A DNA stretch of 64,000 nucleotides from NCBI GenBank assembly GCA_942493285.1, contig OW818691.1, forward strand, positions 7,126,484 to 7,190,483, given 5' to 3'. The number at the start of each line of letters is the position of its first letter. The stretch's first letter is position 1. The position numbers were made by a program, and so were the translations under genes. Shown here in pieces: positions 34,935-41,685 of this stretch. Under the pieces are notes generated by a model, which was given only the letters and a program-made list of their open reading frames with translations, made no database searches and had not been told where the DNA came from. Source of the DNA: an uncultured Myxococcia bacterium. Lineage in GTDB: Bacteria > Myxococcota_A > UBA9042 > PHBI01.

Positions 34935-36272
34935 ATGAACCTCGCTGATGACGCCCTTGCAGACCATGCCGTCGACCTCTGCCAGCGCTTGTTGCGGCTG
35001 GACACGACCAATCCCCCGGGCAACGAGCGGCTTGCGGCCGACCTCATTGCAGAAGAGCTGACGGCCGCCGGGCTCGAGCCGGTCATCCATGAGAGTGCGC
35101 CGGGTCGGGCCAACGTCGTGGCGCGGTTGAAAGGCACGGGAAAGAAGCCGCCGCTCTTGCTCACGGCACACCTCGATGTCGTCGAGAGCGACCCGTCGAA
35201 GTGGACGCATCCGCCGTTCTGCGGGGAGATCCACGACGGCTGTATCTGGGGGCGCGGCGCCATCGACATGAAGAACATGGCCGCGATGTCGGTGGCCCTG
35301 CTCGCGCGACTGAGCCGCGAGGGCGTGAAGCTCGAGCGCGACATCATCTTTGCGGGCGTCGCCGACGAAGAGGCTGGATGCCAGCAGGGGTCCCTGTGGC
35401 TCGTCGAGAACCACCCGGAGCTGGTGCAGGCGGAGTACGCCATCGGCGAAGGTGGCGGCTTCAACTTCTATCTGGGCAACCGGTCATTCTTCACGGTGCA
35501 GGTCGCCGAGAAGGGGGTCTGCTGGGTGAAGGCGCGTGCGACCGGCGAGCCGGGGCATGGGTCCATTCCGCGTTCGGATTCGGCCGTCATCAAGCTCGCG
35601 ACGGCCATCAGCCGGCTGGGCAAGCAGGGGTTGCCAAGGCACTCGACCCCGGTCATGCGTGACTTCGTGGCGTCGCTCGCGAGCCATCTGCCAGCCCCTT
35701 TTAGGCCGGTCATCAGGCGGCTCATGGCGCCCGACATCGCGCCGAGCCTGTTGAGTCGACTGCCGAACCAGGCGCTTGCGCGGCCGCTGCTGGCGATGCT
35801 CGGCAACACGGCGTCGCCGACGGTCTTGCGTGCGGGCAAGAAGACGAACGTCATCCCGAATGTGGCCGAGGCCGAGATCGATGGGCGTATGCTGCCCGGT
35901 CAGACCGATGCCGACATCCTGCGCGAGCTCAAGGCGGTGCTCGGCGACGACATCGAGCTCGAGGTCATGTGGTCTTTGCCGCCCGTCGTGACCGAGCCGC
36001 GAGACTCGCCGCTGCTCGATACGATCCTGAGCGTGATGGGTGAAGCGGCCCCGGGTGCGCCCGTCGTGCCGTATCTCTTGCCCGGCTTCACCGACGCCAA
36101 GGCGTTCACGAAGCTCGGCATGCGCTGGTACGGGTTCGCGCCTGTGCGCCTGCCGAAGGGCATCCGGTTTGCCGACATGTTCCACGGTCACGACGAGCGG
36201 ATCCCGGTGGACGGGCTGCGCTGGGGAACCCAGACGCTAGCCCAGATCGTCATGCGGTTCTGCGGCGCCTGA
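34935..36272 (+). CDS. M20-family metallopeptidase (ArgE/DapE/CPG2-like)
   Basis: ATG at 34935. Metal-binding contexts LLLTAHLDVV (His), GRGAIDMKNMAA (Asp), ADEEAG (Glu-Glu), C-terminal FHGHDERI (His). The ORF-track extension to 34551 is rejected. Confidence 0.8.
   Translation: MNLADDALADHAVDLCQRLLRLDTTNPPGNERLAADLIAEELTAAGLEPVIHESAPGRANVVARLKGTGKKPPLLLTAHLDVVESDPSKWTHPPFCGEIHDGCIWGRGAIDMKNMAAMSVALLARLSREGVKLERDIIFAGVADEEAGCQQGSLWLVENHPELVQAEYAIGEGGGFNFYLGNRSFFTVQVAEKGVCWVKARATGEPGHGSIPRSDSAVIKLATAISRLGKQGLPRHSTPVMRDFVASLASHLPAPFRPVIRRLMAPDIAPSLLSRLPNQALARPLLAMLGNTASPTVLRAGKKTNVIPNVAEAEIDGRMLPGQTDADILRELKAVLGDDIELEVMWSLPPVVTEPRDSPLLDTILSVMGEAAPGAPVVPYLLPGFTDAKAFTKLGMRWYGFAPVRLPKGIRFADMFHGHDERIPVDGLRWGTQTLAQIVMRFCGA

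Positions 36273-41685: not shown

Follow-up and report, generated by a model that had tools for sequence, protein, structure and literature searches.

The 64-kb stretch of DNA analyzed here (the window) carries a gene for an 1,811-amino acid (aa) surface protein on the minus strand (36250..41685), and the 3' end of this gene runs into that of a convergent plus-strand gene for a 445-aa M20/M28-family peptidase (34935..36272), so that the two coding regions share 23 bp. What kind of protein does the long gene encode, and does the overlap with its neighbor have a role? A first-pass annotation of the DNA had described a modular MYXO-CTERM surface protein, and the gene itself proved real: the open reading frame (ORF), taken from the ORF list and its translation, begins with ATG and ends with a stop codon at 36250–36252; its third-position GC (0.88) matches that of other real genes in this window of 62–70% GC; and an identical 1,811-aa protein, from a 9,292,036-bp NCBI contig, is present in the public collection.

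We resolved the protein into modules with Pfam and NCBIfam scans, run on the whole protein and segment by segment, with residue counts, and with two AlphaFold2 (AF2) structure models. A Sec-type signal peptide is predicted at residues 1–27 (41605..41685; all modules lie on the minus strand), where, by inspection, the leader MKVALLVALGLSLALTAFGSTDSRAQA directly precedes a conserved RSRHADTW and the hydrophobic leaders of the orthologues end at the same place. Residues 28–385 (40531..41604) form a seven-bladed beta-propeller in a confident AF2 model—predicted local distance difference test (pLDDT) 90.5, predicted template-modeling (pTM) score 0.91, about 28 strands—and Foldseek likewise places the model among propellers. 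It is followed by a tentative immunoglobulin (Ig)-like spacer at residues 386–480 (40246..40530), where NCBIfam Ca_tandemer matches weakly (20.9 bits; cutoff 50), and by a Cys-containing linker with a second, integrin-alpha-like propeller of the FG-GAP/VCBS type at residues 481–1040 (38566..40245). In the Pfam segment scan, this second propeller scores 58.1 bits over four stretches with FG-GAP_3 (PF13517) and 42.1 bits over two stretches with FG-GAP (PF01839). It also carries DxDxDG-type Ca2+ loops (D.D.DG at residues 549, 662, 697, and 784 and DFNGDG at 894), and thus both the repeated above-threshold units and the loops that characterize the FG-GAP/VCBS family are present.

The remaining modules lead from this second propeller to the C terminus. 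A tentative CARDB-like beta-sandwich occupies residues 1041–1165 (38191..38565; Pfam CARDB 15.3 bits, below the gathering threshold [GA] of 22.7), and a Cys-rich stalk with 31 Cys in 225 aa occupies residues 1166–1390 (37516..38190). The stalk reaches the Pfam Dicty_CTDC family (31.3 bits; GA 27) and contains a weak MopE-like motif, while NCBIfam returned no family at E ≤ 0.5 for residues 1165–1390, the TraA-type Cys-repeat model TIGR04201 included. Four Ig-like domains follow in tandem (residues 1391–1725; 36511..37515), as judged from Pfam, AF2, and Foldseek: the AF2 model (pLDDT 87) contains four similar beta-sandwiches, and its Foldseek matches are four-domain cadherin, protocadherin, RTX-adhesin, and titin arrays. 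The first three score 32.7, 20.3, and 15.3 bits with HYR (PF02494; GA 21.7) in the segment scan, so that the second and third are subthreshold; the first also stands above the threshold in the whole-protein scan (28.7 bits), and the fourth has no HYR match in the segment scan. Thrombospondin type 3 (TSP3) Ca2+-binding repeats come next at residues 1726–1772 (36370..36510), where TSP_3 (PF02412; GA 25) scores 33.2 bits over two stretches on the C-terminal segment and 17.5 bits in the whole-protein scan, alongside subthreshold matches to the TSP3 regions of MtsC and Omp28-related proteins. The architecture claimed at first therefore holds for the N-terminal propeller, which the structure model bears out, for the FG-GAP/VCBS, HYR, and TSP3 modules, which Pfam recovers, and for the tail described next, but the family label "myxo Cys-rich repeats" finds no score in NCBIfam. 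The three HYR domains claimed are recovered too, the first above GA and the second and third below it, in a region modeled as beta-sandwiches, with a fourth Ig-like domain in addition.

The last 39 residues (1773–1811; 36253..36369) have the layout of a MYXO-CTERM sorting signal, GSGGC-SNGAT-PFWMATLLLGALAL-RRRR-TA, identified by hidden Markov model (HMM) searches with the isolated tail and by alignment of homologues. Cys1786 of GSGGC is encoded at 36328–36330 and the RRRR (R1806–R1809) at 36259–36270; between them lies the hydrophobic segment PFWMATLLLGALAL, whose transmembrane character was judged by inspection, and the pattern of this segment followed by RRRR-TA and the stop is kept in homologues. 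On isolated tails of 30, 40, and 80 aa, the MYXO-CTERM model TIGR03901.2 is the top hit each time, with 25.1, 23.7, and 21.4 bits (cutoff 20), although it is not listed in the full-length scan; the related model TIGR03382 scores 19.2, 18.1, and 15.7 bits on the same tails (cutoff 15.85), the 80-aa tail falling just below. In the tails of all 18 homologues aligned, the Cys, the preceding Gly (Gly-x-x-x-Cys), and an Arg are invariant. The call of MYXO-CTERM for the C terminus is supported by the isolated tail, by the 13 of 18 homologue tails that match TIGR03901.2, and by the Cys shared by all 18, with the qualification that the full-length protein does not report it. A short MYXO-CTERM model can evidently escape detection on a very long protein, and tails are better scanned separately.

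Is the source genome one in which such a signal is expected? Proteins of the MYXO-CTERM class are expected in genomes of the Myxococcota or Bradymonadales that encode a myxosortase (MrtX, MrtC, or MrtP; core model NF040914) as well as several MYXO-CTERM proteins. The named homologues of the 1,811-aa protein come from Myxococcota, Myxococcales, or "Deltaproteobacteria" metagenome-assembled genomes (MAGs), with one exception labeled Betaproteobacteria. A scan of contigs for the pattern of the Cys-rich and HYR part was dominated by common CDGxDDDC-type Cys-repeat patterns, with partial relatives among the matches listed, and among those listed matches most were Myxococcota, Polyangiales, Sandaracinaceae, Nannocystaceae, and Bradymonadia MAGs. 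An independent marker agrees: for the Obg GTPase encoded at 1590–2633, all named hits among the best 120 belong to Myxococcota, Myxococcales, or Deltaproteobacteria MAGs, the best named match being 75% identical and another match 97% identical. The Obg marker and the named homologues together support placement of the source, to the phylum level, in an uncultured lineage of the Myxococcota whose genome is about 9.3 Mb in size; the first-pass annotation had likewise proposed Myxococcota. That annotation had let its case depend on the tail scoring as MYXO-CTERM and on this lineage; the isolated tail does score, and the lineage is Myxococcota. Its use of the tail as a taxonomic marker is borne out in part, in that the lineage agrees, but a lone tail is a weak marker and gains its value from the family context.

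Taken together, these features make it likely that the gene encodes a modular cell-surface protein of a Myxococcota bacterium that is sorted by the MYXO-CTERM/myxosortase route, and its modules suggest adhesion. The route would follow what has been described for Myxococcus xanthus, where MrtX cleavage, dependence on the Cys, and a model of type II secretion system (T2SS)-mediated export have been reported, and where C-terminal cleavage and T2SS-dependent surface localization have been shown for TraA and MXAN_4924 (Guo, Haft & Wall 2025, PMC11980579). The N-terminal signal peptide would take the protein through Sec; retention in the inner membrane would then depend on the hydrophobic segment near the C terminus and on the RRRR in the cytoplasm; Cys1786 in GSGGC would be lipidated by a transferase; a CPBP-family myxosortase of the MrtX, MrtC, or MrtP type would remove the C-terminal helix; and the T2SS would carry the protein in folded form to the outside of the outer membrane, to which it would remain anchored by its lipid. 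We infer each of these steps—signal-peptide cleavage, lipidation, myxosortase cleavage, T2SS export, and surface exposure—as well as the adhesive function. C-terminal anchoring would make the protein stand out from the cell as a stalk: the TSP3 Ca2+ repeats and the four Ig-like (HYR) domains would form a membrane-proximal rod, above which would come the rigid, disulfide-rich Cys stalk, the CARDB-like domain, the Ca2+-binding FG-GAP propeller, and the Ig spacer. The novel seven-bladed propeller would sit at the far end as a ligand-binding head, with the FG-GAP propeller as part of the distal binding region. By analogy with TraA, this layout points to an adhesive role toward cells, prey, polysaccharide, or matrix, and the "adhesin or matrix-interaction" role named at first may reasonably be drawn from the types of domain present.

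Several observations weigh against this reading. At E ≤ 0.1, the scan of the whole 1,811-aa protein does not list TIGR03901.2; Synerg-CTERM alone is listed, at 15.1 bits and below its cutoff. On the 30-, 40-, and 80-aa tails, Synerg-CTERM scores nearly as high as MYXO-CTERM (23.5, 22.2, and 19.9 bits; cutoff 22.5), and GlyGly-CTERM reaches 17.4, 17.1, and 14.9 bits (cutoff 15.5). The signature GSGGC has a single Cys, unlike the generic GCGC. Within the 64-kb window, the only part covered of a genome of about 9.29 Mb, neither myxosortase nor T2SS genes were found among the ORFs scanned, which included no CPBP protease. Finally, the adhesin label is drawn only from domain types, because the propeller head lacks a characterized relative. 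A regular-expression scan of all window ORFs also returned no second MYXO-CTERM tail. The MYXO-CTERM model is described as short and divergent and as needing curatorial review, single matches being unreliable and isolated ones outside the Myxococcota being false positives (Haft, 10.1101/2023.06.07.544157). The ambiguity between tail models is resolved by the family context: of the 18 homologue tails, TIGR03901.2 matches 13, GlyGly-CTERM 6, and Synerg-CTERM 2.

How unusual is the head? The propeller at the N terminus was correctly recognized from the start, but its family is uncharacterized: no model in the copies of Pfam-A and NCBIfam searched covers residues 28–385, and Foldseek matches it only to generic seven-bladed propellers (TM score 0.5–0.58, about 10% identity), among them lactonase-like enzymes, YncE, Photorhabdus lectins, and the B12-binding lipoprotein BtuG. 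A profile built from the propeller nonetheless finds 22,486 representatives of 50%-identity clusters at E ≤ 1e-3 and 10,208 at E ≤ 1e-30; a family this large that is absent from the Pfam and NCBIfam copies searched may merit a curated model. The family includes cargo proteins of the type IX secretion system (T9SS) that carry a Por_Secre_tail or CHU_C domain and in which the propeller, often present in two to four copies, likewise lacks a Pfam model. These Bacteroidota-type proteins (annotated with the "gliding motility-associated C-terminal domain"/CHU_C or with Por_Secre_tail) share the propeller at 24–29% identity (E 1e-16 to 1e-32), and they resemble the 1,811-aa protein in being large, modular, and surface-located, with spacers of the Ig or PKD type and a sorting domain at the C terminus. 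They differ in that the T9SS C-terminal domain replaces MYXO-CTERM, in that they belong to another phylum, and in that the propeller is often internal or duplicated. As far as the sequences indicate, the propeller module appears to cap surface proteins of two unrelated sorting systems, MYXO-CTERM/T2SS in the Myxococcota and T9SS in Bacteroidota-type bacteria. Surface-gliding bacteria occur in both groups. Should the ligands of the module in both groups belong to one class of surface or matrix molecules, the head could be an unrecognized domain for adhesion or for recognition of the gliding substrate, an idea we put forward as a speculation with the odds well against it.

The same structural neighbors raise another reading, in which a surface-tethered enzyme or lectin, for example one with a polysaccharide-degrading or glycan-binding propeller, serves predation or matrix remodeling and the protein is not a structural adhesin. 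The lactonase-like enzymes, Photorhabdus lectins, and BtuG among the Foldseek neighbors of the head point this way, as does a weak match (17 bits) of the FG-GAP region to the C-terminal domain of rhamnogalacturonan lyase family 11, and the MYXO-CTERM proteins of M. xanthus include hydrolases such as MepA (PMC11980579). However, the structural matches are all generic, with TM scores of at most 0.58 and about 10% identity, no catalytic-family HMM reaches threshold in the Pfam and NCBIfam scans, and the remaining modules—HYR, TSP3, Cys-rich, and Ig—are typical adhesin spacers. We regard an enzyme or lectin as unlikely, and a surface protein with an adhesive role as the better account of the modules as a whole.

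Does the 23-bp overlap couple the two genes? The first-pass annotation had the stop codons of the two genes overlapping and took this to imply an antisense interaction of the 3' untranslated regions. Read from the sequence, the shared coding segment is real (36250–36272, both strands), but the stop codons themselves do not overlap: the TGA of the peptidase gene lies at 36270–36272 and that of the surface-protein gene at 36250–36252 ("tca" on the plus strand). Read on the minus strand, these 23 bp supply the final two bases of the Leu1805 codon, R1806–R1809, T, A, and the stop; read on the plus strand, they supply the final two bases of a Val codon, MRFCGA, and the peptidase stop. Both proteins retain conserved C-terminal residues across the overlap, V-x-R-F in the peptidase and RRRR in the sorting tail. 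The peptidase itself (Peptidase_M20 103.5 bits; PRK07906 in NCBIfam 441.9 bits) has no signal peptide. Its mechanically called ORF, from 34551, was overextended by 128 codons (34551–34934); we moved the start to the ATG at 34935 because family matches begin near residue 134 and orthologues start with MNL... or MDL.... A 316-bp divergent intergenic region separates this start from an MbnP-family gene.

The overlap does not recur in the relatives compared. Orthologues of the surface protein (P0003 and P0044, 67–68% identical over the full length) sit in three syntenic loci, L003, L004, and L005, which run from a urease accessory gene through a PAS hybrid kinase, a divergent FHA protein, the large gene, the M20 gene, a convergent Trypsin_2 peptidase, and a small ORF to a TPR protein. 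There the M20 gene, whose L003 orthologue is 82% identical to the window's, lies 40–153 bp downstream of the large gene on the same strand. In a fourth locus, L001, which carries a 60% identical orthologue, the neighborhood is another one, and the convergent neighbor is a different gene separated by a 93-bp gap. The 23-bp overlap is absent from L001 and from L003–L005, and blastn comparison of the window with L003–L005 shows M20 alone inverted, all shared blocks being colinear. Because the M20 gene of the relatives lies downstream on the same strand, the overlap is, as judged from the arrangement of these loci compared without an outgroup, the junction left by a local inversion of M20 either here or in the relatives, without sign of a conserved regulatory role.

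Could the overlap nevertheless be a functional antisense device, in which the mRNA 3' ends pair or the polymerases collide and so couple expression of the surface protein to that of M20? No terminator fits between the overlapping genes, and the transcripts must therefore overlap if both genes are transcribed. It is also the sole overlapping pair among the convergent pairs definable in the window, the others being gapped by about 57–62 bp, and an inverted repeat, TTCTGCGGCGCC...GGCGCCGAGCAGAA (36258–36294), spans the M20 stop with two self-complementary GGCGCC copies and could form a hairpin on either strand. This hairpin, however, gains no significant stability over shuffled sequence (z = −1.5 and −1.8), the regions downstream of each stop fold no more stably than their shuffled counterparts (z = −0.9 to −1.8), and no terminator-like site was found in or beside the overlap. 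The two products have no evident functional link, and M20 lacks a signal peptide. With M20 codirectional in L003–L005, a different convergent neighbor across a gap in L001, and M20 inverted among colinear flanks, we consider such a device very improbable, and the antisense interaction read from the overlap at first is not supported. In this lineage alone, antisense coupling could have arisen by chance from the inversion that made the overlap. The conservation of a convergent overlap is best examined before a regulatory role is assigned to it.

Other differences from the relatives lie around the peptidase gene. A segment of about 4.9 kb in the window (30006–34961) has no counterpart in L003–L005 and adjoins the inverted M20, having been either gained here or lost from the relatives; it carries, all on the minus strand, a histidine kinase gene (30730–32160), an ORF without a family (32936–33682), and the MbnP-family gene (33704–34618). 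In the relatives, the interval between the large gene and M20 holds a repetitive extragenic palindrome (REP)-like hairpin element (GGCCACGGAGGGCCGCCCCTACA...), single or as a tandem pair, and the element returns after M20 (L004 10474–10576 and 11921–12207; L005 10461–10613 and 11958–12373). Being on both sides of M20 in L004 and L005, the element brackets the very gene that is inverted in the window, from which the element is absent. A search for inverted repeats flanking M20 returned only short matches of 71–94%, typical of GC-rich DNA.

How does the protein relate to characterized MYXO-CTERM proteins? The prototype receptors of the class, TraA (MXAN_6895) of M. xanthus and its paralogue MXAN_4924, share with it a signal peptide, a distal head, a Cys-rich stalk, and MYXO-CTERM (PMC3325183, PMC11980579), and by analogy all would be expected to take the Sec, myxosortase, and T2SS route. 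The layout of head, Cys-rich stalk, and MYXO-CTERM was proposed for TraA, whose repeats, described by the model TIGR04201, were noted to resemble Pfam00526 (PMC3325183); the Cys-rich region of the 1,811-aa protein matches this same Pfam family. On these grounds it could be a polymorphic kin-recognition receptor like TraA, with the distal head serving homotypic recognition. But the head here is a seven-bladed propeller where TraA has PA14, for which the Pfam scans gave no match, and the TraA-type repeat model does not score. No TraB-like OmpA gene is adjacent, the neighbors being the genes for the FHA-domain protein and the M20 peptidase, so that neither the PA14-like variable head nor the adjacent traB of a TraA receptor is found. 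The protein is also much longer than TraA and adds the FG-GAP propeller, the CARDB-like domain, the four Ig/HYR domains, and TSP3. Among orthologues its head is the best-conserved part (72–74% identity, compared with 68–70% for the HYR region and 67–68% over the full length), the opposite of a hypervariable recognition domain, which speaks against a polymorphic kin-recognition role and favors a conserved ligand such as a polysaccharide, a matrix component, or a prey surface. A TraA-like receptor is thus highly improbable.

Also comparable are other adhesin-like MYXO-CTERM proteins of M. xanthus, a set that includes HYR- and TSP_3-containing proteins (Table S1, PMC11980579) and the cell-cohesion protein MtsC (NF047638). 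They share TSP3 directly before the tail and HYR/Ig spacers, and they are predicted surface adhesins. The protein is not an MtsC orthologue, because the TSP3 stretch is the only part shared (34.6 bits; equivalog cutoff 350) and most of the 1,811-aa protein has no counterpart. Its likeness to the eukaryotic integrin alpha-subunit, hyalin, and thrombospondin, through HMM matches to FG-GAP, HYR, and TSP_3 and through the DxDxDG loops in the FG-GAP blades and TSP3, does not extend beyond individual domains: an integrin beta partner is lacking, and the protein's bacterial setting and mode of anchoring are different. Overall, this is a new MYXO-CTERM-anchored modular adhesin-like protein of a known class, not an orthologue of TraA, MtsC, or any other characterized protein, and it adds one more large modular MYXO-CTERM surface protein of uncultured Myxococcota that shows assembly from shuffled modules. 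That the tail is instead another Cys- or Gly-type signal for a different sorting enzyme (Synerg-CTERM, the only model listed in the full-length scan and at 22.2–23.5 bits on the two shorter tails, or GlyGly-CTERM, there above its cutoff at 17.1–17.4 bits), or a membrane anchor that is never cleaved, is hard to credit in a Myxococcota genome when MYXO-CTERM is the top model on every tail construct and prevails among the homologue tails.

On the other side of the surface-protein gene, and divergent from it, lies a plus-strand gene for a protein with two FHA domains (41842–43833), followed by one for a PAS hybrid histidine kinase/response regulator (43902–45812, plus strand). The two also adjoin the large gene in L003–L005, and they do not in L001; a regulatory link to the surface protein is conceivable. 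Past the kinase comes a urease cluster (ureB, ureC, ureF, and ureG; 46945–51139, plus strand) whose synteny is common to the relatives, with UreD at the edge of L003. Farther along, the minus strand encodes an 848-aa protein (60634–63180) in which collagen triple-helix repeats are joined, in an unusual fusion, to an outer-membrane multihaem cytochrome of the OmcA/MtrC-like type, the cytochrome part being recognized by Mtrc-MtrF_II-IV (201.6 bits), OmcA-like_N, and several CXXCH-type domains.

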